From Pseudomonas phage PaBG, in the sequence record KF147891.1: a stretch of 64,000 nt of DNA. One strand, 5' to 3'. Position numbers and translations under genes: made by a program. Numbering within the stretch: the stretch's first letter is position 1; every line of letters starts with the position of its first letter. This document shows, piece after piece, positions 22,778 to 36,346 of the stretch. Below the pieces are notes generated by a model. That model worked only from the letters and a program-made list of their open reading frames with translations. It was not told the origin of the DNA and did not search any database.

Positions 22778-23451
22778 CTGAGCATCAGGTATTGCCTGAG
22801 GAAATCGCCAATAACCAACGGCTGCTGCGCATCCACATTTCGCTGACGTCCGAAGAACTGCGTGAGTATTTTGCCATGCGCTCTGCGTGCCGAGAGCTTC
22901 CAGCAGGATCGGAAGCCCAACGTGCTCTCGTTGGCAATTTCACCCAACGCTTCTCTGATTTCGTGGCTGACTGGAAGACGTTTGGTGTTACGCAGTACCC
23001 GACGCCGCTGCTTCCGTCGCTGCCGTACAACTACTTCGCCACGATCGACCGTGAGCACGCATCTGGTGCCGTGCTCTTTCTGCTAGCGAACCCGTCGCCG
23101 CAGAGTCGCGCAATCTACGCCCATTGGGCGACGTGGAGAGCAATGCTGGCTGCGGTTGGTTTAGGTTCGTTGCATGACGATCTGTGCCAGTGGAGTTCGT
23201 ACTTGCAAGTCATGCGCAAGGTCTGCTCGCAGAAGACGTTCCCGCGTCAAACCCTCTGGGCTGAACTGATTCCGCAACTGGTGATGCGCCGCGACTTGGT
23301 AGACGGCCGCGTAACTGGCGTCGTTGCTTATGTTGCCCGCTGCATCCGAGACTGCCTTGGGTTGGATCGTAATTCCGATCGTCTGATAATCAGCGACACC
23401 GGTCTGGTAGTTGACGGACCTGCCCTTACCATTGAACGGAGACTCCCATGA
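22774..23451 (+). CDS. hypothetical protein
   Basis: Trimmed to MTEHQVLPEE (ATGA overlap with the previous stop). Confidence 0.45.
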   Translation: MTEHQVLPEEIANNQRLLRIHISLTSEELREYFAMRSACRELPAGSEAQRALVGNFTQRFSDFVADWKTFGVTQYPTPLLPSLPYNYFATIDREHASGAVLFLLANPSPQSRAIYAHWATWRAMLAAVGLGSLHDDLCQWSSYLQVMRKVCSQKTFPRQTLWAELIPQLVMRRDLVDGRVTGVVAYVARCIRDCLGLDRNSDRLIISDTGLVVDGPALTIERRLP

Positions 23452-24098
23452 TGGAAAACTTCCTCACGCACGACGACATCGTAACCTTCTTCTCGGACAT
23501 GGATGTCAGCGTGCAAATCCTGCAGCAACACCAGGGTTCGCAGTACACCGACATCAACGGCCAGCAGGCTGTCGCTGCGTTCGCAGAGTTCAGCGGTCAC
23601 ATTCCTTTCCCGAACACTGACGGTGATCTGCGCGAAGCGGCCGCAGCGCTCAAGCGCAAACTGCGCGAAGCTCGTGGCGACGCCAACACCGTACTGGTTC
23701 GTTCCATGGTCGCCACCTCGGCACCCACAGGCGTGTCCTTGTTCGCACACTGCGCCTTCGTCAAGGCCTTCGTCGAAGTCGATCCGCGCACTGAGCGCGT
23801 TCGTCGTTTGGTTGAGCGCGGCGAGTGCTGCAACGTCGGCGATGTGGCTCACGCTCTGATCCTCGGCTATCGCTGCGCCCGACCTACGTGGGAGAACGAT
23901 GCGTTCATCTACCTGCAGAACGCGAGCGAGTTCAAGGTCAATCGCGCACCTCTGCTCGGTATTTTCCCCGAGGGCACCAACATCAAGTTCGAGGCGCACA
24001 TCGATCAGTACCAAGACGACGGCAGTGTTCGCGTCTGGTCGCCGAGTGTTGCCGACATCCTGGCCACCGACTGGATCATCCTGGCTCACGAAGTGTGA
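23448..24098 (+). CDS. hypothetical protein
   Basis: 216 aa. ATGA overlap. Confidence 0.5.
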   Translation: MMENFLTHDDIVTFFSDMDVSVQILQQHQGSQYTDINGQQAVAAFAEFSGHIPFPNTDGDLREAAAALKRKLREARGDANTVLVRSMVATSAPTGVSLFAHCAFVKAFVEVDPRTERVRRLVERGECCNVGDVAHALILGYRCARPTWENDAFIYLQNASEFKVNRAPLLGIFPEGTNIKFEAHIDQYQDDGSVRVWSPSVADILATDWIILAHEV

Positions 24099-24227: not shown

Positions 24228-24303
<76 letters not shown>

Positions 24304-24325
24304 TATTCTCTGGAGATACACGAAC

Positions 24326-24799
24326 ATGCCGCAAGTTTCTGCGCCAGAAGGCGATGCGCTACTCGACCTCGCCAACATGCCTGATCCTGCCATCGACGAT
24401 GCGTTCGATCTTCACCTGATCGAGGCGAATGACGGCGTATGTCGTGCGGTCGCGCCGATCTTCAAGTCCCTGCAACTGGCGCTGTCCGATATGAGTTACA
24501 CGGACAACGGTGCGCAGTACAAGGAAGAAACTGGACATCGCGGTGCGCTGACGCTGGAGTTCTTCAACAACGTCGGTGGTCAGCAGTGGATCGACGGTTG
24601 CGACGCGCTCATCGCCGAACTCGATGCCGTTGTATTCCACGTGTACCATGCCAACGGCGAGCTGTACAGCGAACTCCGCTTCTCTGGCTTGACCGAGCCG
24701 GAGTTCACCCGCGAGTTCTCGCACAGCGATCCGACAGTGCAGGTCCTGCAGTACGTCTGGCTGTTTGCCGACGTCAAGGAAACTGTGAAAGAGCAGTAA
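24326..24799 (+). CDS. hypothetical acidic protein
   Basis: 157-aa ORF with SD ggaga directly after tRNA-Thr. Confidence 0.45.
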   Translation: MPQVSAPEGDALLDLANMPDPAIDDAFDLHLIEANDGVCRAVAPIFKSLQLALSDMSYTDNGAQYKEETGHRGALTLEFFNNVGGQQWIDGCDALIAELDAVVFHVYHANGELYSELRFSGLTEPEFTREFSHSDPTVQVLQYVWLFADVKETVKEQ

Positions 24800-25111
24800 A
24801 GAACATCCGACCGCCGATTGCGTGCTCGTCCCACGTGATCGACGGTTTTGGCAGCGACTCCGCTAAGCTGCCGACCAGATGGGTGTGCGGAAGGGTTCGG
24901 CGGAGGTAGCAACTTCGCCGTCGATTGGCCAGTGCAGCGCGTCCTCAGCGTACTCGTCCTACGCAGTCCTCAGCGCTGTACCGCCGTTAGCGTTTACCAA
25001 GCGCCTGCCGAATGCCTGCTCGTCCCAGGATTGGCTGGCCAAAAGACGCAAAGCCCTGCTCGACTTTCCGGTGGAGTAGTAACCGGCTCGATTACTTGAA
25101 GGAGAACAGGC

Positions 25112-25348
25112 ATGTTCCTTTCGCTTTGCCTTGGGCTTGCTCTGGTGTGCGTTGAGCCGACTGCTCCGCCTACACGACCAGATGTCGTGTACTACCAGAC
25201 AGAGACCCGCATGGTTGCTGTTCGGGAATACACCGAACCAAAAGAAGTCGCCGCACTTCCGGAACAGAGTGGCGGTGCGCCCTATCCACGATCAGCGCCT
25301 AACGACCGCGGTCGTGAAGGCCACCGATGTACCATCGGGGTTGCCTAG
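25112..25348 (+). CDS. hypothetical small exported protein
   Basis: SD aggaga. N-terminus MFLSLCLGLALVC is signal- or lipoprotein-like. Confidence 0.3.
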   Translation: MFLSLCLGLALVCVEPTAPPTRPDVVYYQTETRMVAVREYTEPKEVAALPEQSGGAPYPRSAPNDRGREGHRCTIGVA

Positions 25349-26105
25349 CTGTCCGGAGCTTCCGCGATCCCGCCCCAAACCGAAACACCACATCGCTAGG
25401 CTTAACGGCCAACAAAATCGCTGAGAGCGAATGAAGTGCGCGAGAAATCGTAGGCACTAAGAAAGGGCAAGGCGGCACGTTAGAGAACAAGGCAAGAGGC
25501 TGACTCGCTGGATTTAGCGACCAGATGCGCCGGGAAACAAACCTCTGCCGCCTGCCAACCTAAAGCGGACTGATGAGTGGTTCAAGTCCACATGGCGAAA
25601 GCCTCGGGTGAAAGGCCCACGAAACTCAAACGAGTATCCGCATGAACGCCGCTCCTGGATGAGCGGTGGGTTCAAGTACACCGACCCACTAATCGGGTCG
25701 TTTCTCGGAGCTGCTTCTGCTGAGATTTCTGTGCGTAGTGAGAAGCCATAGGAGCCTTCGGATACCTGGTCGGCTCATGCCGATAGCGCTTTTTCATCGG
25801 CGCTATCGTACAGGGTTATGGTGGTCATGTGAAACACAAGCACATGCACGCTGCACTCGTTCCCGCCCGCGAGTTCCACCATGCCTGCGGTGAAAGCCAC
25901 AGGTGCAGCCTATTTATGCCATCACGCTCGGCAACGTGCTGAGAAGAAAGAAACGATAAGGCGAGTCTACATACGCCGATCGGCCGCATAGCAGCCCATT
26001 GTGGCAGCCGCATAGTGCCGATTGCCGTTGCGACCAAGCACTTGGACACAAACGCTTCTTGAGTCGTCGAGCGTGATGGCACCCTATTGAACAGAGGTAA
26101 CACGT

Positions 26106-26288
26106 ATGTGTATTTGCCGCCGTGCATGGTTCCTGATTGTCGTCAGCGCATTGTACCTGTTGGGTTGCGTTGTCGCATGGTCCATGGGTTGTCTGAATGT
26201 TTACGTCAACCCGGCACAGCTGGTATACGTTGCCGTTCTCTCTGTTCCGCTGTGGTGCAAGTCAGTAGGACGTTTGCTTCACATGTGA
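26106..26288 (+). CDS. hypothetical small membrane protein
   Basis: 60 aa with two hydrophobic segments. SD agagg. The overlapping ORF 26087..26296 was rejected. Confidence 0.3.
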   Translation: MCICRRAWFLIVVSALYLLGCVVAWSMGCLNVYVNPAQLVYVAVLSVPLWCKSVGRLLHM

Positions 26289-26294
26289 GTCTGT

Positions 26295-26388
26295 GACCCA
26301 GTAGCTCAGTTGGTAGAGCGCGTGAACGCCTGCGCCGATAGCGGGAGTAACGTCATAGAGGTCGAGAGTTCAAATCTCTCCTGGGTCT
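26295..26388 (+). tRNA. aberrant tRNA-like element (possible tRNA pseudogene or non-canonical tRNA)
   Basis: Perfect 7-bp acceptor stem (GACCCAG/CTGGGTC), canonical D arm (TAGCTCAGTTGGTAGAGC) and T arm (GAGAG-TTCAAAT-CTCTC). There are 43 nt between the D and T arms. The only 5-bp stem with a 7-nt loop (CCTGC-GCCGATA-GCGGG) is displaced 8 nt and lacks U33. Confidence 0.35.
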
Positions 26389-26394
26389 GCCTAT

Positions 26395-26405
26395 TTCTGT
26401 AAAGG
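26395..26405 (+). promoter_or_regulatory. TTCTGTAAAGG promoter-like motif
   Basis: Variant of the recurrent TGTAAA motif directly upstream of ORF 26406. Confidence 0.3.
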
Positions 26406-26615
26406 ATGTACACGATGTTGCCGTCAATGCACTTTCCACTAAAGCGTCCTGTGCTTACTCCAGAAGAAGCCAGTGCGTCGCGTGCCAGAACCCTTGAGGC
26501 TATTCGCAAATGCCGCGAAGCCCAAGCTGAACTGGAGCGAGTTTGCCGTGAGAAAGGCATTGAGATTCCGGTGATGGTCTGTCGTTCTAGTTTCCGAGTT
26601 CGTTCGGGTCGTTAG
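26406..26615 (+). CDS. hypothetical small protein
   Basis: 69 aa. The 3' end runs into the tRNA-Lys gene. Confidence 0.3.
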   Translation: MYTMLPSMHFPLKRPVLTPEEASASRARTLEAIRKCREAQAELERVCREKGIEIPVMVCRSSFRVRSGR

Positions 26616-26681
26616 CTCAGTTGGTAGAGCATGGCGCTTTTAACGCCGTGGTCGTTGGTTCGAGTCCAACACGACCCACCA
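26606..26681 (+). tRNA. tRNA-Lys (anticodon TTT)
   Basis: GGGTCGTTAGCTCAGTTGGTAGAGCATGGCGCTTTTAACGCCGTGGTCGTTGGTTCGAGTCCAACACGACCCACCA. Acceptor stem and D arm identical to E. coli tRNA-Lys. Confidence 0.8.
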
Positions 26682-26689
26682 GTTTCATA

Positions 26690-26765
26690 GGCCCCATAGT
26701 CGAGCGGTTAAGACGCTTGCCTGTCACGCAAGAAATCGCGGGTTCGATTCCCGCTGGGGTCGCCA
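26690..26765 (+). tRNA. tRNA-Asp (anticodon GTC)
   Basis: Anticodon arm CTTGC-CTGTCAC-GCAAG. T arm GCGGG-TTCGATT-CCCGC. Encoded CCA. Confidence 0.75.
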
Positions 26766-26766
26766 T

Positions 26767-26843
26767 AGGACGTTAGCTCAGTTGGTTAGAGCATCTGACT
26801 TTTAATCAGAGGGTCCTGGGTTCGAGTCCCAGACGTCCTACCA
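26767..26843 (+). tRNA. second tRNA with anticodon TTT (tRNA-Lys-like)
   Basis: AGGACGTTAGCTCAGTTGGTTAGAGCATCTGACTTTTAATCAGAGGGTCCTGGGTTCGAGTCCCAGACGTCCTACCA. Anticodon arm TCTGA-CTTTTAA-TCAGA. Separated from tRNA-Asp by 1 nt. Confidence 0.65.
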
Positions 26844-28621: not shown

Positions 28622-28688
28622 GGAGCCAATGGCTCCCTTTTCCTTTGGCCGTGGTAATTTCTCCGAATCGAACATGAGGAGATTTGCC

Positions 28689-29192
28689 ATGCTTGGATTA
28701 TTCGGCAACGTGACTGTGAAGAAAGGCAAGCGGAAACGCAAATTCAAGAAGTACCGCCAGTACGAATACGATTTCTACGGGCGCAAGCTGGTGCTGCAAG
28801 GCTACGAAGCACAAGCGCTTGAGTACCTTGTCGAAGTCGGCGGGTTCGATCCTGCGGACATCAAGACCGAGTGCGAGTTCGGCGACGCCCTGAACATCCG
28901 TTACAAGTATTCGGGCAAATGGCGTTCCTACATGCCTGACATTTTCATCCGCAACCACAACATCATCGTCGAAGTGAAGTCGAAATCCACGATGGGCTTG
29001 TTGAACAACAAGAAGCGTGGTTGGTCGATGAACCAAGCCAAGGCGAAGGCGTGCCATGCCCGCGGTTTCAAGTTCTGCGTGCTTCTGATGACCGACTCAG
29101 GCAAGCGCATTCCGCTGCCGAAGAACTGGCCGCTGATGAAGAAGGCGGAGTGCCTGCGCATCATGCGTGAGGAGCTTGGAGTTCGCATCTAA
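28689..29192 (+). CDS. PD-(D/E)XK family nuclease, homing-endonuclease-like (paralog of 41438..42262)
   Basis: YMPDIFIRNHNIIVEVKSK gives PD...EVK. The C-terminal 110 aa align with the C-terminus of the 41438..42262 product. Confidence 0.5.
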   Translation: MLGLFGNVTVKKGKRKRKFKKYRQYEYDFYGRKLVLQGYEAQALEYLVEVGGFDPADIKTECEFGDALNIRYKYSGKWRSYMPDIFIRNHNIIVEVKSKSTMGLLNNKKRGWSMNQAKAKACHARGFKFCVLLMTDSGKRIPLPKNWPLMKKAECLRIMREELGVRI

Positions 29193-29231: not shown

Positions 29232-29879
29232 ATGAGCATTACCTACAAGTACGGAAACGGCAAGTTGATCGGCTACCGTTCCGTAGACAAGTTTCATGGT
29301 GGCCTGTCGTTCAAGTTTCATCCAGACGGCGGAGACTCGTTCGATCGGTTCATCGACAAGGGTTTGATTCTCGAAATCAAAACTCAGTACGGTGAGCAAA
29401 CGATCGCGCTGAAACGGAACGACTACCGCGTAGTTCCCGAGCTGTGGAACTGCACCACGCTGATTTTCCAGAGTAACGAGTTGGCGCGCTCGCTCCACCT
29501 TGCTCTCGACGTTGAAGGCTTCCTGCACGTTTCGACACACAGCACGGCGACCCTTGCCGCTGAGTTGGCGAGCACCATCACGCACCAGCTGGCAACACCG
29601 TTCATGAAGCGCAAGCAGATTGACGTGCATCTGCGTAGTGAGCCCAGCGTCATCGCGCATTCCATTCTTCGGTGCATCGGGCTCAACCGATTCGCACCCG
29701 GCATGGACGTCAAGACGTTCTACCAACAGCATACGCCAGAAGCAGCCTACTCTGCGCTGTGTGCGTGGCTGAGCAACAAAGACCTTCGCGTGAACTTCCT
29801 GCCGCATGATGGCACGAAGCGCGCCGCATTCGTTTCTCGCATTGGCGAGAATGTTTTGGAGTTCGCCGAACAGGCGTAA
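29232..29879 (+). CDS. hypothetical protein
   Basis: 215-aa ORF. Confidence 0.45.
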   Translation: MSITYKYGNGKLIGYRSVDKFHGGLSFKFHPDGGDSFDRFIDKGLILEIKTQYGEQTIALKRNDYRVVPELWNCTTLIFQSNELARSLHLALDVEGFLHVSTHSTATLAAELASTITHQLATPFMKRKQIDVHLRSEPSVIAHSILRCIGLNRFAPGMDVKTFYQQHTPEAAYSALCAWLSNKDLRVNFLPHDGTKRAAFVSRIGENVLEFAEQA

Positions 29880-29895
29880 GCAAATAGGACCCATC

Positions 29896-30693
29896 ATGGC
29901 AGCCGTACGTAAACTATCCGACCTGAAAGAAGCTGGCTACAACCCGCGCGTCATCAGCAGCAAGCGCCTCAGCAACCTGCACAAGTCCATGACGACCTAC
30001 GGCGACCTGAGCGGCGTCGTGTTCAACGTCAAGACCAAGACCCTGATTTCCGGCCACCAGCGCCTCAAGCCGCTGCGTGATGCTGGCATCAAAGTCGAAA
30101 TCAAGACCAAGCCCATCACCGACAAGTTCGGCACTGTAGCCGAAGGCTACGTCGTCGCCAAGACCAGCGCCGGCGAGCTGCGCATCCCGTACCGCGAAGT
30201 ATCCTGGAGCGACAAGAAAGCCGAGTACGCTGCCAACATCGCTGCAAACGCTCACGGCGGTGACTTCGACCGCACCAAGCTCGGTACCCTGCTGGCTGCT
30301 CTGGAGAAGGGCAAGTCGTTCGACATCGACGTTCTGGGTCTCGATCCGTTGAGCGTGCGCAGCCTGATGCCGAAGATGCCGAACGTCGAAGGTAGCGGTG
30401 ACGATGACGGTGAATCGTTCCAAGAGTACGGCGAGGACAGCTTCGAGTTCGATCATCAGTGCCCGAAGTGCAAGTTCCAGTTCAACTCCAGCTCTGCAAG
30501 CAAGCCCAAGAAGGACAAGCCGCAACCCAAGGCGCCGAAGCTCGACGTGAAGAAGGCCAAAGCCGAAGTCAAAGCCAAGAAGATCAAGGCTGAGAAGAAG
30601 ACCGACAGCAAGGCCAAGTCCAGCGCCGCAAAAGAATCGCTGAAAAAAGCGAAGTCCAGTAAGCTCAAGGCCAAGATCAAGAAGGCCAAGTAA
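29896..30693 (+). CDS. ParB N-terminal (ParB/Srx-like nuclease) domain protein with a Lys-rich C-terminal tail
   Basis: Start MAAVRKLSDLKEAGYNPRVI after SD agga. The LISGHQRLKPL motif resembles the ParB/sulfiredoxin DGHHR box. C-terminus has CPKCKF and about 70 residues of K/A repeats. Confidence 0.5.
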   Translation: MAAVRKLSDLKEAGYNPRVISSKRLSNLHKSMTTYGDLSGVVFNVKTKTLISGHQRLKPLRDAGIKVEIKTKPITDKFGTVAEGYVVAKTSAGELRIPYREVSWSDKKAEYAANIAANAHGGDFDRTKLGTLLAALEKGKSFDIDVLGLDPLSVRSLMPKMPNVEGSGDDDGESFQEYGEDSFEFDHQCPKCKFQFNSSSASKPKKDKPQPKAPKLDVKKAKAEVKAKKIKAEKKTDSKAKSSAAKESLKKAKSSKLKAKIKKAK

Positions 30694-30704
30694 GTAGGTC
30701 AGCC

Positions 30705-31712
30705 ATGGAAAAGAAAATCGTCAAGATACCTTCGATGAAGAAGATCAACGCTCTTCCGAAGGCATTCAAAGGCATCAGTTCGTTCTCCGGTTGTGGCGGG
30801 AGCTCCACTGGTGTGAAGATGGCTGGCGTCCAAGTGCTGCTCGCAACCGAGTTCATCAAGCCAGCCATCGAAACCTACGAGAAGAACCACAAAGGCACCA
30901 TCGTCATCGGTGAAGACATTCGCAAGGTCGACTGGGAGTCGTGGCGCAAGGAGCTCAAGCTCAAGCGCGGCCAGCTGGACTTCTCCGAAGGCAGTCCGCC
31001 GTGCAAGTCCTTCTCGACCTCTGGCACTGGCAGTGACGACTGGGGCAAGGAGAAACTCTACTCTGAGAACGTCTACCAGCGCACCGATGACCTCTTCTAC
31101 GAGGAAATGCGCAAGCTGGAAGCGTTCATGCCCAAGGTCTTCGTCTGCGAGAACGTCAAGGGCATGGTTGAGGGTGACGCCAAGGGTTACTTCATCGAAA
31201 TCCTGCGTGACCTTAAAGCAATCGGGTATAGCGTGAAGGCGCAGGTGTTGAACGCTGCCCGTCTCGACGTACCCCAAGCCCGCGAGCGCGTGATCTTCGT
31301 TGGTGTGCGTAACGACTTGGTGAAGAAAGGCTTTGAGCCTGTGTTCCCCAAAGCGAAGCCGTACGAGGTGAACGTCAACGACGTCCTACCTCACATTGCG
31401 TACCTCAAGTCGAAGTACCGAGGCGACATCAAGTACGTCCCAGCTTCGATCCCGAGTCCTACGATCGTGGCGAGCGATGGTACCAACAGTGAGACTGCCG
31501 GCTTCTCGTCTGGCGGCTTCATTGAGACTGTCGATGGCGAGCGCCGCAAGTACACCATCGACGAGTTGAAGAAGATTTTCACCTTCCCGGATGACTTCAT
31601 CTTCACTGGTACCTACAAGCAGCAGTTCGAGCGTCTCGGCCGCTCAGTTCCGCCACTCATGATGTATCGCGTAGTCGCGGAGCTTCGCCGCCAGATTCTG
31701 GAGAAGCTGTAA
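30705..31712 (+). CDS. DNA (cytosine-5)-methyltransferase family enzyme with an atypical PCK catalytic motif
   Basis: Motif I FSGCGG, motif II ATEF, motif IV SPPCKSFS (canonical is PCQ), motif VI ENV (FVCENVKG), motif VIII QARER, motif X RLGRSVPP. Confidence 0.8.
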   Translation: MEKKIVKIPSMKKINALPKAFKGISSFSGCGGSSTGVKMAGVQVLLATEFIKPAIETYEKNHKGTIVIGEDIRKVDWESWRKELKLKRGQLDFSEGSPPCKSFSTSGTGSDDWGKEKLYSENVYQRTDDLFYEEMRKLEAFMPKVFVCENVKGMVEGDAKGYFIEILRDLKAIGYSVKAQVLNAARLDVPQARERVIFVGVRNDLVKKGFEPVFPKAKPYEVNVNDVLPHIAYLKSKYRGDIKYVPASIPSPTIVASDGTNSETAGFSSGGFIETVDGERRKYTIDELKKIFTFPDDFIFTGTYKQQFERLGRSVPPLMMYRVVAELRRQILEKL

Positions 31713-31715
31713 CCC

Positions 31716-31742
31716 AAGGGAGTCTTCGGACTCCCTTTTTAT
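31716..31742 (+). terminator. intrinsic terminator followed by AAACTGTAAAT (31751-31761) and TATAAT (31768-31773)
   Basis: GGGAGUC-uucg-GACUCCC followed by UUUUUAU. Exact copy of the 16234 terminator. Confidence 0.8.
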
Positions 31743-31793
31743 GGCCTCCGAAACTGTAAATCCACAGTATAATCCATTGGTTGGAGCCTAAAC

Positions 31794-32570
31794 ATGAGCC
31801 AAGAACCTGTAGTAGACAACCACGTCCCAGGCGAACGCTGGGAGTTCAACGAGGACGTAGCCAAGCAGTTCGACCTGATGCTGGAGAAGTCGATCCCCGG
31901 CTACGGACAGATGCGTGATCTGGTGTATCGCATCGGCAAGCGTTTCGTTCAGTCGCCGTCGAACGTCATCGATCTGGGTGCTAGCCGTGGTGAAGCCGTG
32001 GCGCGCTTTATCGCTGAGTTCCCGCACTCTGACTTCTTCCTCTCGGAAGTTTCCGAGCCAATGCTGGCTGAAATGCACGAGCGCTTTGCTGATCTGCCGA
32101 ACGTGTTTCCTGTGAGCTACGATCTGCGCAAGACGTCCGAGCAGATTGCCACAGCGATTCGTAATCCGAAGTTCGGCATGGCCCACGCTGGGCTGAACCC
32201 TGTTGCGTCGCACACTACGCTGGTGCTGTCTATTCTCACCATGATCTTCGTGCCCATCAACTTCCGCCCGAGCATCTACAAGGGCGTGTACGACGGACTG
32301 GCCCGCGGCGGCGCGTTCATCGTTGTCGAGAAGGTGCTTGGCAACTCCGCCGCCATGCAAGAGCTGCTGGTTGACGTGTACCACGAGTACAAGCACGACA
32401 ACGGCTACAGCTGGGAAGCCATCGAGCGCAAACGCGCCGCCCTCGAAGGCGTGCAAGTACCTGTGAGCCATGAGACCAACATCGATATGTTGCGTGCCGC
32501 TGGCTTCCGCAACGTCGAATCGTTCTGGCGCAACATGAATTTCGTGGCCTATCTGGCTATCAAGGATTAA
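31794..32570 (+). CDS. cmoA: carboxy-S-adenosyl-L-methionine (Cx-SAM) synthase CmoA homolog
   Basis: About 45% identity to E. coli CmoA in two blocks: WEFNEDVAKQFDLMLEKSIPGYGQ..FVQSPSNVIDLGASRGEA vs [42 protein letters not shown], and GGAFIVVEK...YKHDNGYSWEAIERKRAALE...AAGF vs GGALVLSEK...[20 protein letters not shown]...KAGF. Confidence 0.8.
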   Translation: MSQEPVVDNHVPGERWEFNEDVAKQFDLMLEKSIPGYGQMRDLVYRIGKRFVQSPSNVIDLGASRGEAVARFIAEFPHSDFFLSEVSEPMLAEMHERFADLPNVFPVSYDLRKTSEQIATAIRNPKFGMAHAGLNPVASHTTLVLSILTMIFVPINFRPSIYKGVYDGLARGGAFIVVEKVLGNSAAMQELLVDVYHEYKHDNGYSWEAIERKRAALEGVQVPVSHETNIDMLRAAGFRNVESFWRNMNFVAYLAIKD

Positions 32571-32572
32571 CG

Positions 32573-33025
32573 ATGCGTGAACTCAAGCTACTCCGCAAGC
32601 GCGTAAAGCAGGCTTGGGCGGCAGAAGCTGACCTGAGTCCGAATGAGCGAGAACTGCACCAGTGGCAGTTCCTGTCGATGCAGAGCAACGTGCCCTATGT
32701 CGTCGGTAAGGGTGCCGCCAACACGTTCTTCTATCGTGTCGGTACTACTGGTGAAATGACCTACGTGATGCCAGACGAAATGTTTGCCATCATGGACAAG
32801 TGGGTCAACTCTAGCTTTGCTTTGTTCGCCATCACCAAGACGCGCGACATCAAAGACGCCCCGTGCTCCACGGACATCAACGTCCTGCTGCAAAAGACGA
32901 AGGACAAGTACGTCGGTTATTTCATTGTCGGTATCACACCCGACCAGCGTGTAGTTCGCCTGCATGTATTGAAAAGCGGACTCCGCAAAAACCAATGGGT
33001 GCCCTTCAAGCCGAAGAAACGGTAA
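32573..33025 (+). CDS. hypothetical protein (within the modification cassette)
   Basis: 150-aa ORF directly after the cmoA-like gene. Confidence 0.45.
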   Translation: MRELKLLRKRVKQAWAAEADLSPNERELHQWQFLSMQSNVPYVVGKGAANTFFYRVGTTGEMTYVMPDEMFAIMDKWVNSSFALFAITKTRDIKDAPCSTDINVLLQKTKDKYVGYFIVGITPDQRVVRLHVLKSGLRKNQWVPFKPKKR

Positions 33026-33034
33026 GGAAAGACA

Positions 33035-33859
33035 ATGGACCAGAAGACTCGTTCCAAGAAATTGCGCCGAGCGCTCGTTGCGCAGGCGAAGTCGGTGGGC
33101 GTCAAGAATGTAGCCGTTCCCATGAGCAGCGGTGTGGACAGTCACTGTGCGCTGTTCGCCTGCCTCGAAGCTGGGTTGAGCCCGCACGTCTACTCGTTCC
33201 ATCTGGACGGCGTTGAAAGCCGTGACGTGCGTGTCGCCGAGAAGACAGCGGAAGCCTTCGATCTGCCGTTCACCAAAGTGACGCTACCCAATGGCAAGAA
33301 GCAACTCATCAAGGACGTCATCGAGCTTGCCCGTTTCGGCTGCCGTAGCAAGACGGACTTCGAGTGCTTCTGGCCAATGTGGCACTTGCTGCCGAAGATC
33401 AAGCAGAAGGCTTTCTTCACCGGCCATGGTGCCGACAGCCTGTACTGCCTTAGCCGCAAAGCTGTTCAACACTACGCCGGCCGCGAAGATGAATTTCGTA
33501 GGCTGGCTTTCTCGTCCAACAAAGCCTTCCAGAAGGGCTTGATCGAGAAGTGGTGTGAGACTAAGGGCAAAGGCAAAATCTACTGCCCGATCTTCTTCAA
33601 CCAGCAGACGCTTGCAATCTTCCAAGGCGCCAAGCCTGCTGATCTGAACAAGCCGATCCAGAAAGCCGTGAGCCGCATGGCGTTCGAGGAATACTTCGAG
33701 CATGTGCGCGTCTACGTTCACCAACCTTTCCAGTTGGGTGACACCGGCATCAAGATCGGCTTCGAGCAGCATCTGCTGGACAGCGAACTCAACACCAAGT
33801 CCTACAAAAGCGTTGTCGGCATTTATAATGAGCTGGTGCGCAACTACGGGAAGAAGTGA
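33035..33859 (+). CDS. PP-loop (adenine-nucleotide alpha-hydrolase) superfamily ATP pyrophosphatase
   Basis: N-terminal VAVPMSSGVDSHCALFA matches the PP-loop motif SGGxDS, as in asparagine synthetase, QueC, NAD synthetase and TilS. Confidence 0.55.
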   Translation: MDQKTRSKKLRRALVAQAKSVGVKNVAVPMSSGVDSHCALFACLEAGLSPHVYSFHLDGVESRDVRVAEKTAEAFDLPFTKVTLPNGKKQLIKDVIELARFGCRSKTDFECFWPMWHLLPKIKQKAFFTGHGADSLYCLSRKAVQHYAGREDEFRRLAFSSNKAFQKGLIEKWCETKGKGKIYCPIFFNQQTLAIFQGAKPADLNKPIQKAVSRMAFEEYFEHVRVYVHQPFQLGDTGIKIGFEQHLLDSELNTKSYKSVVGIYNELVRNYGKK

Positions 33860-34473
33860 CCATGTTCATCCAAAACTATATCCACTACAAGACCGATCCC
33901 GCCTCGTGGGTGCTGAACACGCTGTTCCCGCTGACTGCGGAAGAGTACGGCGACCAGCAAGCTTGGCTCGATGCTGGAGCTCCAGACGAACCTCCGATGA
34001 CTCGCGTCCTGAATGCTGAGCAAGATCGACTGTTCAAGCTGGTACACAAGCACGCCAGTGACTACTACGCGCAGAACAAGCCGTACCTGAACTCCGTCGC
34101 AATCATGATGGCAATGACCGCGCTCTACGGTGAGCAGCAAGTTCTCGGCCATTCGTATCGCGGTGCATTCCTGTTTGCCGGCAACTGCGAAGCGATGTTC
34201 AGTCGTCTGGTGATGCAAGGTCAAGGTGCAATGGATTTCATGCGCTACAACCTTGCACAAGAAGTAACTGGTGACCCGATGCTCGCGGTAATTCGCGCCG
34301 AGCAACTGTGCCACAAGTACGGCCTGCGTAATCACCGCATGCCAACCGGTGACGGTACCGACATCGTGTTCAGCCTTGAGCCGATCGCCAACCCGGTGTT
34401 CGATAACGTCAAATACATTCCATCCGTCGCTGGCTACTATACCATCGTCGGCAAAGGTGCAGCGAGGGATTAA
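33856..34473 (+). CDS. hypothetical protein
   Basis: GTGA-coupled to the PP-loop gene. Likely ATG 6 nt downstream (MFIQNY). Confidence 0.45.
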   Translation: MTMFIQNYIHYKTDPASWVLNTLFPLTAEEYGDQQAWLDAGAPDEPPMTRVLNAEQDRLFKLVHKHASDYYAQNKPYLNSVAIMMAMTALYGEQQVLGHSYRGAFLFAGNCEAMFSRLVMQGQGAMDFMRYNLAQEVTGDPMLAVIRAEQLCHKYGLRNHRMPTGDGTDIVFSLEPIANPVFDNVKYIPSVAGYYTIVGKGAARD

Positions 34474-34475
34474 CC

Positions 34476-35537
34476 GTGGCCAAGAAAGACAAACTCAAGA
34501 AGAAAAAAGGTGATGTCAAGATCGATGTCACCGTCGAGAAGAAAAAGAAAAAGAAGGCGAAAGCCGAGGTAATGCCGATCGCGAAGGACAGCTACATCAT
34601 CGTTCGTGTCGGTAGCAAGCACAAGCTGGCACTCGCCATCAACCCGGAACGCGGTCGCGCTGTCATCGACGAAACTCTGGCGGACGACGAGCCACAGCAC
34701 ATCGAGTTCGACGAGAACAACCTGGTGTGCAACCTGGGCACCAAGCCCAAGGGTGGCGCTGCCTTCGGCGTGCGTATCGAACCCTACGTCTCCAGCGTCG
34801 AATCCAAGTACGGCCAGATGCACTTCTTCCGCGAGCTGGGTGACCTGGAGAAGAAAGCACTCAAGCGCGCACTGCGTCGCACCTACGACGGCATGCTGGA
34901 ACAGAACCTGAACGTCTTCCCGTTCACCCAGATGAAGATTACGCCGAAGCGCGGCAAGTACGCGGGTATGTATCTGTTCCGTCGCAAGTCTGGCGAGGTC
35001 TGGGATGCCGTTGTACTGCACCCGGAGACGTTCGAGGACACCAAGTTCAACGAGTACCTGCTGTACCACGAATACGGTCACGCTGTCTGGTACAAGATGA
35101 TCACTGCCAGCTACAAGGCCAAGTGGATCAAGCTCTACCACAAGCGCCTGGAGCTGATGAACATCCTGAAAGATCGTCTTGAGCCGATGCTGGACGAACT
35201 GCTCAAGTTCGCCGGCAGTCTCAAGGACTTCTACAAGGAACTCGAAGAGGAAGACCGCCTCGTGTTCCGTGAGGTGCTGTCGCACTACAAGCGCTACCAC
35301 AAGATGGATGGCTACTCGATGGACATCCTGCACATGGAAGACACTGAGAAGTTTGCTTCGATGTGGCCGAAGCGTGCAACTCTCGTTGAATCGCGCCCTG
35401 ACCTGAGCGAATATGCGATGGTCAAGCCTGAGGAGTTCTGGGCAGAAGCGTTTGCGTTCCACATGACTGGGCGCAAAATGCCCAAGGACATTACCAAAGC
35501 CATGGAGAAAACGCTGACTGCTTTGCAGAGCGTGTAG
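34476..35537 (+). CDS. HExxH zinc-metallopeptidase-like protein with a poly-Lys N-terminus
   Basis: MAKKDKLKKKKGDVKIDVTVEKKKKKKAKAEV followed by LLYHEYGHAVWYK (HExxH). Confidence 0.45.
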   Translation: MAKKDKLKKKKGDVKIDVTVEKKKKKKAKAEVMPIAKDSYIIVRVGSKHKLALAINPERGRAVIDETLADDEPQHIEFDENNLVCNLGTKPKGGAAFGVRIEPYVSSVESKYGQMHFFRELGDLEKKALKRALRRTYDGMLEQNLNVFPFTQMKITPKRGKYAGMYLFRRKSGEVWDAVVLHPETFEDTKFNEYLLYHEYGHAVWYKMITASYKAKWIKLYHKRLELMNILKDRLEPMLDELLKFAGSLKDFYKELEEEDRLVFREVLSHYKRYHKMDGYSMDILHMEDTEKFASMWPKRATLVESRPDLSEYAMVKPEEFWAEAFAFHMTGRKMPKDITKAMEKTLTALQSV

Positions 35538-35547
35538 AGACTCCCAC

Positions 35548-36111
35548 ATGAACGACCTTGCGACGTTAAAGTCCCTAACCTCGATCAAGCCCATTGCTAC
35601 ATTGGGCAACACACCAGGCACCACCATGTTCAATCGTTTCTTCTTTGAGCGACTGAGCGCATTCGGCTCTGTGAAAAATGGCATCGTCCTGACGATTAAC
35701 GACGAAGCCTTTGAAGATGTAGAAGACTGGGGTGAGTTCATCCAGACCCCGATGGGTAACGTGACGGTTCGCCGTGCTGTTACCGAAGATGACCTGCAGA
35801 GTCTGAGTTTGCCGGGTATGGCCCATCTTCGTCATGCAGGCGTGCGCAATTTTGCTCGCCTGTTATCTGACGATGCCGTGATCTTTCGGTTTGAGACTGC
35901 GCGTTGGCAAGGCGTTGAGTATCCGATCGAGGAATTGAATCGGTACTTTGAAACCCTGCGTCGCGCTTATCACCTGAGTGACGAGGCTGGCATCATCGAC
36001 GTGCCGATTCAGCTCGGTAGTGTAAACCACCGATATACGACCAGAGCGCAGATTGAATCTGTCCTCTACCCAATGGCGTACTACTTTTTTCGAGAAGATA
36101 CGGAGCTCTAA
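35548..36111 (+). CDS. hypothetical protein
   Basis: 187-aa ORF. Confidence 0.45.
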   Translation: MNDLATLKSLTSIKPIATLGNTPGTTMFNRFFFERLSAFGSVKNGIVLTINDEAFEDVEDWGEFIQTPMGNVTVRRAVTEDDLQSLSLPGMAHLRHAGVRNFARLLSDDAVIFRFETARWQGVEYPIEELNRYFETLRRAYHLSDEAGIIDVPIQLGSVNHRYTTRAQIESVLYPMAYYFFREDTEL

Positions 36112-36112
36112 C

Positions 36113-36346
36113 ATGAACTTTGGTGAAGCGCTACACGTACTGGAACAAGGCGGCAAAGTCCAGCGCACCGGCTGGAATGGCAACGGCATGTGGCTCGAAC
36201 TCCAAGTGCCTGACGAACACAGCAAGATGACGCTACCGTACATCTTCCTGTCGTATCCTGCAGATGCCAAGAACACGCCCGGTGCGCGCGTACCCTGGGC
36301 TCCGTCGCAGACCGACGTTCTGGCGAAAGACTGGCAAGTGGTTTAA
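36113..36346 (+). CDS. DUF2829 / Tad2-like protein (putative anti-Thoeris sponge)
   Basis: MNFGEALHVLEQGGKVQRTGWNGNGMWLELQ...MTLPYIFL...VPWAPSQTDVLAKDWQVV matches, from memory, the GEA..L..G.kv.R.GWNG.GM and SQTD.LA.DW signature of DUF2829/Tad2. Start after SD ggag. Confidence 0.5.
   Translation: MNFGEALHVLEQGGKVQRTGWNGNGMWLELQVPDEHSKMTLPYIFLSYPADAKNTPGARVPWAPSQTDVLAKDWQVV

Follow-up and report, generated by a model that had tools for sequence, protein, structure and literature searches.

A predicted CmoA-CmoX-CmoY-type DNA hypermodification cassette in Pseudomonas phage PaBG

The closest described counterpart of the locus presented here is the CmoA-CmoX-CmoY system of the Synechococcus phage S-B43, which is backed by biochemical, structural and virion DNA evidence (Yang et al., Nat Commun 2025; PMC12783734). 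In that system, SpCmoA makes carboxy-S-adenosylmethionine (Cx-SAM), SpCmoX accepts only Cx-SAM, and not SAM, to yield 5-carboxymethylcytosine (5cxmC), and SpCmoY adds glycine, acting on 5cxmC in DNA both in vitro and in vivo; 5gcxmC is present in S-B43 virion DNA. The carboxylate of Cx-SAM is bound by R350 in motif X of SpCmoX, and the R350N mutant is dead. The same paper describes an engineered laboratory carboxymethyltransferase acting at CpG (M.MpeI N374K), a ParB-domain neighbour in many contigs, and several ligase clusters with differing pocket residues, whose amines are not yet assigned (PMC12783734).

Judged from its sequence, a region of Pseudomonas phage PaBG, which grows on P. aeruginosa PAO1 (PMC7412058), is very probably that phage's version of the same DNA hypermodification system. 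The window, that is, the whole 64-kb stretch of DNA analysed, corresponds to PaBG bases 96001-160000 (offset 96000). We verified all seven open reading frames that the initial annotation had placed here, on the + strand and at the same coordinates, with spacings of -4 to 81 nt. They correspond to PaBG_00176 to PaBG_00182 of the published re-annotation, where the same proteins are listed, with different starts for PaBG_00181 (window 33862) and PaBG_00182 (window 34572):

29896-30693, + strand: ParB/Srx-like protein (PaBG_00176)
30705-31712, + strand: predicted CmoX-type DNA cytosine C5-carboxymethyltransferase (PaBG_00177), annotated as 'DNA cytosine methylase'
31794-32570, + strand: predicted CmoA-type carboxy-SAM synthase (PaBG_00178), annotated as 'tRNA (cmo5U34)-methyltransferase'
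32573-33025, + strand: 150-aa protein (p150; PaBG_00179 / O152_gp307), conserved alongside CmoA and the ligase
33035-33859, + strand: predicted CmoY-like PP-loop amide ligase (PaBG_00180), annotated as 'putative asparagine synthase'
33856-34473, + strand: 205-aa open reading frame (PaBG_00181), whose start overlaps the ligase stop
34476-35537, + strand: HExxH metalloprotease-like protein with Zmp1/PPEP/anthrax-LF similarity (PaBG_00182)

Two further genes of anti-defence type, with Tad2-like domains, lie inside the window.

The product of 30705-31712 is a CmoX-type enzyme by prediction, far closer to SpCmoX than to ordinary methylases. It matches the Pfam family PF00145 (DNA_methylase, E 1e-51), and its best match in the PDB is SpCmoX (8YF3, E 5.4e-56), whereas every ordinary C5-methyltransferase in that comparison scored 3.4e-22 or worse, HaeIII standing at 3.4e-22. 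Identity to SpCmoX is 40% in a MAFFT alignment and 35% by tblastn. The SPPC, ENV, QARER and GRSVPP motifs are all present, and the catalytic SPPC (S97-P98-P99-C100) aligns with S95-C98 of SpCmoX. The Asn of motif X is replaced by Arg ('erlGRSVPP', against 'ervGRMVPP' in SpCmoX and 'miGNAVP' in HaeIII); this residue, R313, occupies the position of SpCmoX R350 and HhaI N304 and is invariant in the CmoX alignment. The other Cx-SAM contacts are likewise kept and invariant, SpCmoX F25, E47, F48, D69, C98 and R350 corresponding to PaBG F27, E49, F50, D71, C100 and R313. Five more CmoX homologues, each adjoining CmoA, share the motif X Arg, and those of divergent jumbo-phage contigs each carry SPPC and LGR(S/I)HVP. 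Assignment to the canonical SAM-dependent C5-methyltransferases (Dcm/HhaI/HaeIII type) was rejected, their motif X being Gly-Asn-(Ala/Ser)-Val, with the Asn adjacent to the methyl of SAM, and that of PaBG having Arg in GRSVPP. The target-recognition region of PaBG CmoX is shorter than that of SpCmoX and the two do not align, so that the GC specificity is not transferable to PaBG.

The gene lying 81 nt downstream encodes a full-length CmoA homologue, a predicted Cx-SAM synthase. Its closest solved structures, aligned end to end, are CmoA 1IM8 (E 4.5e-26) and 4GEK (E 2.2e-25), and it is 28.5% identical to the assayed SpCmoA (E 5e-28); compared with E. coli CmoA it bears an insertion. It matches NCBIfam TIGR00740 (E 7.6e-38) with 130.5 bits, below the equivalog cut-off of 193.3, and NF011995 with 95 bits, for a cut-off of 285. 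Given these scores and the lack of an annotated CmoB, it was not classed as a bacterial CmoA equivalog of the tRNA cmo5U pathway. CmoB was sought among the product names of the annotation table for the whole 258-kb genome, which include no 'cmoB' and four 'transferase' products only; the window searchable by homology covers 64 of the 258 kb.

The product of 33035-33859 (274 aa) is a predicted CmoY-like, AMP-forming amide ligase. It matches PF00733 (Asn_synthase, E 4.9e-6), displays the PP-loop SSGVDS (S31-G33-D35-S36), and is a full-length homologue of SpCmoY (33% identity, E 6e-32, the alignment spanning 90% of the length); 21 invariant columns are common to the 11 family members compared. 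The match to TIGR01536 is limited to profile positions 234-368 of 517, at 22.6 bits against a cut-off of 267, and in this profile comparison no glutaminase domain was found. A glutamine-hydrolysing AsnB, with its Ntn glutaminase and synthetase domains, was thus rejected for this 274-aa protein. The profile matches bear out the C5-methyltransferase-like, CmoA and PP-loop genes of the initial annotation.

Contigs of divergent jumbo phages keep a set consisting of ParB, CmoX, CmoA, in some cases p150, and ligase, with identities of 35-56%, and across the diverse contigs examined CmoA always adjoins an R-type CmoX. All 28 IMG/VR loci found with a p150 profile contain both CmoA and the ligase. PaBG_00176, directly upstream of CmoX, has the ParB N-terminal (sulfiredoxin-like) fold and a Lys-rich C-terminal tail; it is presented here as a conserved partner of CmoX that may help to bring the modification enzymes to DNA, by targeting or by loading. 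It and the 150-aa protein are conserved accessory factors, with a possible role in DNA binding or targeting. Among relatives whose CmoX is 87-89% identical to that of PaBG, the ligase is either 82% or 35% identical, the 35%-identical form being accompanied by an extra 2OG-Fe(II) oxygenase; a DUF1611 gene is carried by the contig L011. Since the ligase and tailoring genes differ among close relatives, the amide-forming step is the variable part. One contig (L015) has ParB, CmoX, CmoA and p150 with no ligase within 6 kb. In two others (L024, L026) a same-family ligase (32-35% identical) is accompanied by a thymidylate-synthase-like and a PLP enzyme, and neither CmoA nor CmoX was detected within 10 kb, so that family membership alone does not fix the substrate. 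In a related jumbo-phage contig (L029), the same genomic slot holds TAGT glycosyltransferases together with ParB-like and p150-like genes.

The initial annotation had the ParB/Srx-like and HExxH proteins both flanking the core. The HExxH gene, which stays beside the clamp loader in four contigs whose islands are without CmoA and CmoX (L024, L026, L028 and L029), belongs to the backbone bordering the island and lies outside the Cx-SAM pathway, since its position is kept beside islands of other chemistry. Its product matches PHROG 17197 (E 1e-147), and H198, E199, H202, E320 and E324 are invariant among five homologues (HEYGH and 'PEEFWAEAFAF'); the helix downstream of HExxH, 'PEEFFAE', is like that of Zmp1/PPEP/lethal factor. 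Profile matches to Zmp1/PPEP (E 0.003, with the C-terminal helix alone aligned) and to ATLF (9G0J, E 0.0015; Pfam ATLF, E 0.05) are weak. The longer form, starting at 34476, has a Lys-rich N-terminus also seen in an IMG/VR relative. The 205-aa open reading frame starting at 33856 is probably not a core component: Pfam, PHROG and NCBIfam-type profile searches returned no family match, it has three close homologues only, it is absent from L011-L016, and it shows no similarity to the post-ligase open reading frames of Alexandravirus or a Yersinia phage. The companion status of the 150-aa and ParB proteins, the backbone status of HExxH and the swapping of ligases and tailoring enzymes are not discussed in the parts of Yang et al. 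consulted (PMC12783734).

We infer the enzyme activities, amine, target sequence and virion base of PaBG from the homology of its proteins, their diagnostic residues and the conservation of the surrounding genes. CmoA would convert SAM and host prephenate into Cx-SAM, whose carboxylate would be bound by the motif X Arg that replaces Asn in CmoX. After replication, CmoX would flip out cytosines of the phage DNA, Cys100 attacking C6, and would move the carboxymethyl group onto C5 to give 5cxmC; the PP-loop ligase would then adenylate the 5cxmC carboxylate and couple an amine to form an amide. PaBG DNA thus most likely carries 5cxmC turned into an amide, and such a modification should protect the DNA from host restriction and from other defences directed at DNA. 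In the PaBG literature searched we found no mention of DNA modification or restriction resistance, and no experiment on PaBG DNA. The route from Cx-SAM to 5cxmC put forward in the initial annotation gains support from the evidence on the homologous S-B43 genes (PMC12783734), whose defining sequence features PaBG shares. The accompanying supposition that such a cassette was uncharacterised did not hold, the S-B43 counterpart having been published in 2025: the idea was right but not new. Counted against our reading were the CmoA score below the equivalog cut-off, the low identity of the ligase to SpCmoY, the equally similar ligases in islands where CmoA and CmoX were not detected (L024, L026), and the target-recognition region that does not align with that of SpCmoX.

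An ATP-dependent amidation giving 5-carbamoylmethylcytosine had also been proposed. An amide formed via the PP-loop ligase is supported, but this particular product is less likely than an amino-acid amide because the ligase is without a glutaminase domain to supply ammonia and the characterised homologue adds glycine; the amine is probably glycine or another small alpha-amino acid rather than ammonia. That the same pathway uses something other than glycine (free ammonia, another amino acid or a polyamine), which would make the base an undescribed one, is a reading we take seriously while holding it to be the lesser chance. It agrees with the several ligase clusters and their differing pockets (PMC12783734), with the 32-33% identity to SpCmoY, and with the swapping of ligases and addition of oxygenase or DUF1611 genes among relatives with nearly the same CmoX; among the 11 ligases compared, however, H56 and Y137 belong to the subgroup residues common to the PaBG ligase and SpCmoY and missing in the alternative ligases. 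A substrate other than 5cxmC in DNA, such as the carboxylate of a nucleotide or protein, would reduce the position of the ligase in the cassette to mere synteny. This is unlikely: it would accommodate the ligases of L024 and L026 and the ligase-free set of L015, but not the co-occurrence of CmoA and ligase in all p150-profile loci, nor the action of SpCmoY on 5cxmC in DNA (PMC12783734).

Two tRNA genes, tRNA-Thr(UGU) and tRNA-Ala(UGC), are encoded in the window 3-5 kb upstream of the cassette, and the published annotation makes PaBG_00178 a tRNA (cmo5U34)-methyltransferase. Both anticodons bear cmo5U34 in E. coli (on the topic, see PMC4737166). One could propose that CmoX is an ordinary 5mC methyltransferase and that the CmoA homologue feeds extra Cx-SAM to host CmoB for cmo5U34 on phage tRNAs, but this is very unlikely, as the motif X Arg is present, the nearest structure is that of a Cx-SAM-specific enzyme that does not use SAM, CmoA always sits beside an R-type CmoX, the target in S-B43 is DNA and not tRNA (PMC12783734), and the linked ligase would be left unexplained. 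That CmoA is mainly an anti-defence protein draining host SAM, with DNA modification secondary, is posed as an open question by Yang et al. (PMC12783734) and is in keeping with the two Tad2-like-domain genes, yet we regard it as exceedingly improbable, since the obligate pairing with R-type CmoX and ligase across lineages suggests that supplying the cofactor is what has been selected for.

If the hypermodification reading is true, PaBG, which can be cultured on a well-studied host, would lend itself to the study of bases derived from 5cxmC, and raises the questions of which defences are blocked, what part the ParB-like and 150-aa proteins play, and what amine the ligase takes. The swapping of ligases and the oxygenase and DUF1611 additions point to a family of chemically different cytosine amides yet to be identified. 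More speculatively, and less probably than not, the ParB/Srx and 150-aa partners might be needed for genome-wide modification, a non-glycine amine might yield an undescribed cytosine amide, and the slot between the TnsA-like nuclease gene and the HExxH/clamp-loader genes might be a swappable modification island of Cx-SAM, TAGT glycosyl and thymidine types.

Compared with S-B43 (PMC12783734), PaBG has the same three enzyme families in adjacent genes, a CmoX with SPPC, motif X Arg and Cx-SAM contacts, and a ligase consisting of the ATP-binding PP-loop domain only. Identities are nevertheless low (CmoX 35-40%, CmoA 28.5%, ligase 32-33%). The gene order is ParB-CmoX-CmoA-p150-ligase in PaBG and CmoA-CmoY-CmoX in S-B43, whose cluster is without the ParB-like and p150 genes that PaBG has, and the phages carrying these clusters are a Lu11/Alexandravirus-related jumbo phage on Pseudomonas aeruginosa and a T4-like cyanophage, respectively. 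M.MpeI N374K, as presented in the same source, is alike in that substituting a basic residue for the Asn of motif X lets a C5-methyltransferase use Cx-SAM, but it is a laboratory Lys mutant, whereas PaBG CmoX has a natural Arg, belongs to a dedicated phage clade and has its own cofactor supply. With the bacterial CmoA/CmoB tRNA cmo5U34 pathway PaBG shares the fold of CmoA and, presumably, its reaction (SAM and prephenate giving Cx-SAM), the acceptor enzyme being CmoB in bacteria and a DNA C5-methyltransferase homologue in PaBG. Finally, as in the C5-MTase/TET/TAGT islands responsible for 5hmC glycosylation, cytosine C5 would be modified after replication and then decorated; those islands employ a hydroxymethyl group and a glycoside, whereas PaBG is predicted to employ a carboxylate handle from Cx-SAM and an amide.

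Seven plus-strand ORFs are packed into positions 29896-35537 of the window, with intergenic gaps of -4 to 81 nt. Their translations correspond to those of PaBG_00176-00182 in the published PaBG re-annotation, whose coordinates are offset from the window by exactly 96,000. The cassette proposed for this interval in the initial annotation is thus present, as judged from the ORFs, their spacing and the family matches below.

Genes of the PaBG cassette interval (window coordinates, strand, description)
29896-30693, +, ParB-like protein (PaBG_00176); PHROG 620, E = 2.9e-38; Pfam ParBc not matched
30705-31712, +, C5 cytosine DNA methylase fold (CmoX, PaBG_00177); PF00145, E = 1e-51; TIGR00675, E = 1e-44
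31794-32570, +, CmoA-like protein (PaBG_00178); TIGR00740, E = 7.6e-38, 130 bits, below the equivalog cut-off of 193
32573-33025, +, 150-aa protein (p150, PaBG_00179), 100% identical to O152_gp307 of PaBG; PHROG 23597
33035-33859, +, PP-loop ligase (PaBG_00180); PF00733 Asn_synthase, E = 4.9e-6; PP-loop SSGVDS
33856-34473, +, 205-aa ORF (p205, PaBG_00181); no match in family searches
34476-35537, +, HExxH protein (PaBG_00182); PHROG 17197 'peptidase'

The surrounding genes form the replication module of a jumbo phage and encode topoisomerase II subunits, a clamp loader, SbcCD-like proteins, an SNF2 helicase and a DNA polymerase of family A. This polymerase shares 54% identity with its counterpart in Pseudomonas phage Lu11 and roughly 45% with those of Erwinia Alexandravirus phages. 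Between 28.5 and 37.6 kb, a search for promoters and terminators yielded no signal exceeding shuffled expectation inside the cassette. A TnsA-like/DUF7487 endonuclease gene (28629-29192, PaBG_00174, annotated in the Vsr/MutH/HJR family) precedes the ParB-like gene, with one 215-aa ORF (29232-29879, PaBG_00175) intervening. Its homologues lie upstream of ParB at three loci of related phage contigs (L004, L006 and L011), and a fourth locus (L024) has one close to the island; the nuclease could perhaps act on unmodified DNA. A domain resembling Tad2 (Thoeris anti-defence 2) is present in two window proteins, one just downstream of the cassette (36053-36346, E = 1.2e-23) and one at 23448-24098 (E = 2.8e-12).

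The enzyme at 30705-31712 had been annotated as a complete C5-methyltransferase fold, consistent with its PF00145 match and the presence of SPPC. Among solved structures, its best match was 8YF3, the CmoX of Synechococcus phage S-B43 (SpCmoX; E = 5.4e-56), with HaeIII methylase as runner-up (E = 3.4e-22). S-B43 CmoX, a C5-MTase homologue, is reported to use carboxy-SAM (Cx-SAM) but not SAM, and to place the carboxymethyl group on C5 of cytosines in GC sites; in the crystal structure, Arg350 takes the place of HhaI Asn304 and touches the cofactor carboxylate (Yang et al., 2025, PMC12783734). In motif X, 'erlGRSVPP' of PaBG pairs with 'ervGRMVPP' of SpCmoX and 'miGNAVP' of HaeIII, so the diagnostic arginine (R313) is present in PaBG CmoX. 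SPPC (C100) and the counterparts of the SpCmoX cofactor contacts F25, E47, F48 and D69 were invariant in the three-way alignment. The motif VIII-IX segment is shorter and unalignable with SpCmoX, and GC specificity is therefore not transferable to the PaBG enzyme.

The CmoA homologue annotated at 31794-32570 was likewise recovered, below the equivalog cut-off and with end-to-end alignments to the CmoA structures of H. influenzae and E. coli (E = 4.5e-26 and 2.2e-25). Identity to the CmoA assayed from S-B43 (SpCmoA) is 28.5%, and the PaBG protein carries 'KRaaLEGV', matching the Arg199 region of E. coli CmoA. This arginine was dropped as a CmoA signature, because the active SpCmoA has no aligned Arg there. 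CmoA would synthesise Cx-SAM, and CmoX would then carboxymethylate C5 via Cys100, with Arg313 gripping the carboxylate. Given the signature residues and the characterised homologue, we consider it highly probable that the PaBG proteins perform these two steps.

Five tRNA genes are encoded at 24228-26843: Thr(UGU), Ala(UGC), two Lys(UUU) and Asp(GUC). At 94 nt, with its anticodon at position 37, the predicted tRNA-Ala is longer than usual, pointing to an insertion, an intron or a miscall. In E. coli, Thr-UGU and Ala-UGC anticodons bear cmo5U34, and host CmoB could therefore also be supplied with Cx-SAM by the phage enzyme; the PaBG annotation table lists no CmoB, a check of product names and not of homology. 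That tRNA-Thr(UGU) and tRNA-Ala(UGC) are encoded in the window also speaks for a rival reading, where CmoA serves cmo5U34 on tRNAs and the methylase is an ordinary one. However, the Arg-type methylase, the ligase and the conserved linkage would all be left unexplained, and we regard this reading as very improbable. CmoA might also deplete SAM, but at most as a by-product of its activity.

Under the preferred reading, cytosine carboxymethylation, the product would be 5-carboxymethylcytosine (5cxmC), whose carboxylate the ligase likely adenylates before forming an amide. The PP-loop ATP pyrophosphatase proposed at 33035-33859 is supported by its PF00733 match and SSGVDS loop. The PaBG ligase equals the S-B43 ligase (SpCmoY) in length, is 33% identical to it over 90% of the length (E = 6e-32), and shares with it the PP-loop and many further invariant residues; a sequence search against solved structures returned zero matches. 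CmoY of S-B43, an asparagine-synthetase-like enzyme, is described as ligating glycine to 5cxmC in an ATP-dependent reaction, and the glycine amide is present in virion DNA (Yang et al., 2025, PMC12783734). The AsnB profile is matched by the PaBG ligase in its synthetase half only, indicating that it has no glutaminase domain. This point, together with subgroup residues such as H56 and Y137, common to PaBG ligase and SpCmoY and missing from alternative ligases, favours glycine or a similar amino acid as the amine. The choice is uncertain on sequence grounds, because identity to SpCmoY is only 32-33%, ligases are swapped among close relatives, and ligases of the same family are also present in islands that lack CmoA.

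Relatives that share 87-89% identity with PaBG in CmoX have either a ligase 82% identical or one 35% identical plus a 2OG-Fe(II) oxygenase. At one such locus (L025, 5565-7360; CmoX 87% identical), the 35% identical ligase lies between CmoX and CmoA, followed by the oxygenase (PF13640, E = 1.6e-14). In L011 (3366-5265) and L012, a DUF1611 gene (PF07755) precedes the ligase. Since closely similar CmoX proteins are paired with such different partners, the amide-forming and tailoring part has evidently been exchanged between close relatives, and the oxygenase and DUF1611 genes suggest more tailoring of the carboxymethyl handle. Erwinia Alexandravirus genomes (L040-L057) differ in the ligase near cmoA, whose identity to the PaBG enzyme is either about 42% or about 25%.

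The order TnsA-like nuclease, ParB, CmoX, CmoA, p150, ligase, p205, HExxH, p187 was found in five IMG/VR contigs (up to 228 kb), with 42% to 89% amino-acid identity to the PaBG proteins. We read the neighbourhoods of four ParB-like homologues (41-52% identity): a DNA_methylase beside a CmoA-like gene and a p150 homologue occurred at all four and a ligase at three, and every CmoX carried SPPC and LGR(S/I)HVP. A p150 profile search of IMG/VR gave 28 loci, including Erwinia Alexandravirus phages and a Yersinia phage, all 28 with CmoA and ligase within 10 kb. Conservation across such distant loci marks the ParB-like protein and p150 as recurrent companions of the predicted pathway. The p150 link is strong, not absolute, as one homologue (L009, 6001-6441; 50% identity, on contigs of 72 and 236 kb) has none of CmoA, CmoX and ligase in the flanking 6 kb. 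In Alexandravirus the cassette is dispersed: some 18 kb separate CmoX and cmoA, and in L057 a ParB-like match follows p150 at a distance of about 10 kb. The 7 kb around the Yersinia phage locus contained no CmoX match. A 168-kb contig of a Bacteroidales MAG bin (L015, 6001-9006) has ParB-CmoX-CmoA-p150 but lacks a ligase in the adjoining 6 kb; 5cxmC may stay unamidated in its DNA.

In L011 (1053-3353) and L012, CmoX is interrupted by an intein sited precisely at the catalytic cysteine (residue 100 in PaBG), with Pfam matches running from DNA_methylase through Hint/Intein_splicing back to DNA_methylase. The same intein is probably widespread, because most Alexandravirus matches start at residue 100 and PHROG 36001 (715 positions) covers only residues 100-332 of PaBG CmoX.

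The HExxH protein (34476-35537) does flank the core, as initially annotated, but it does not belong to the cassette. Its homologues adjoin p187 and the clamp loader at loci with a different upstream island: a thymidylate-synthase-like gene, a PLP enzyme, a ~500-aa ORF and a CmoY-family ligase, with no CmoA or CmoX within 10 kb and no ParB (L024, 6249-11888; L026, 5389-9275), or an NAD-epimerase, two TET-associated glycosyltransferases, ParB-like and p150-like proteins and a sigma factor, with CmoA and CmoX absent (L029, 5024-9999). This constant position led us to reject a pathway-specific amidase or trimming protease. The gene is phage backbone, and the slot upstream of HExxH/p187/clamp loader appears from its changing contents to be a variable DNA-modification island in this jumbo-phage group. 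The island shows evidence of a swappable tailoring module. The protein has an invariant HExxH and a C-terminal 'PEEFFAE' helix aligning weakly with the Zmp1/PPEP/lethal-factor family. Its published start is at 34572; with the upstream GTG at 34476 the protein gains a Lys-rich N-terminus, and conservation of this extension in an IMG/VR relative (L004, 6940) argues for the longer form. We also discarded p205 as a ligase partner: it has three close homologues only, is missing from more distant cassettes (L011-L016), and is unlike the ORFs 3' of the ligase in Alexandravirus and the Yersinia phage.

The mechanism initially proposed, from CmoA through Cx-SAM and cytosine carboxymethylation to a ligase, was essentially right and had already been demonstrated in S-B43; the supposition that such a cassette was uncharacterised was overtaken by that report in December 2025 in Nat Commun (Yang et al., 2025, PMC12783734). 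According to the same source, a survey of phage data for SPPC and R350 gave 5,615 candidate CmoX sequences, accompanied by 4,257 CmoA, 2,251 ligases and 1,660 ParBc-domain proteins; its available text makes no mention of p150. Two published descriptions of PaBG do not discuss DNA modification, and the phage, which grows on the laboratory strain PAO1, could serve as a model for 5cxmC-type chemistry. The PaBG cassette is a further member of the published CmoA-CmoX-CmoY system and not a new kind of system; in contrast to the S-B43 cluster, from which both are absent, it includes a ParB-like protein and p150.
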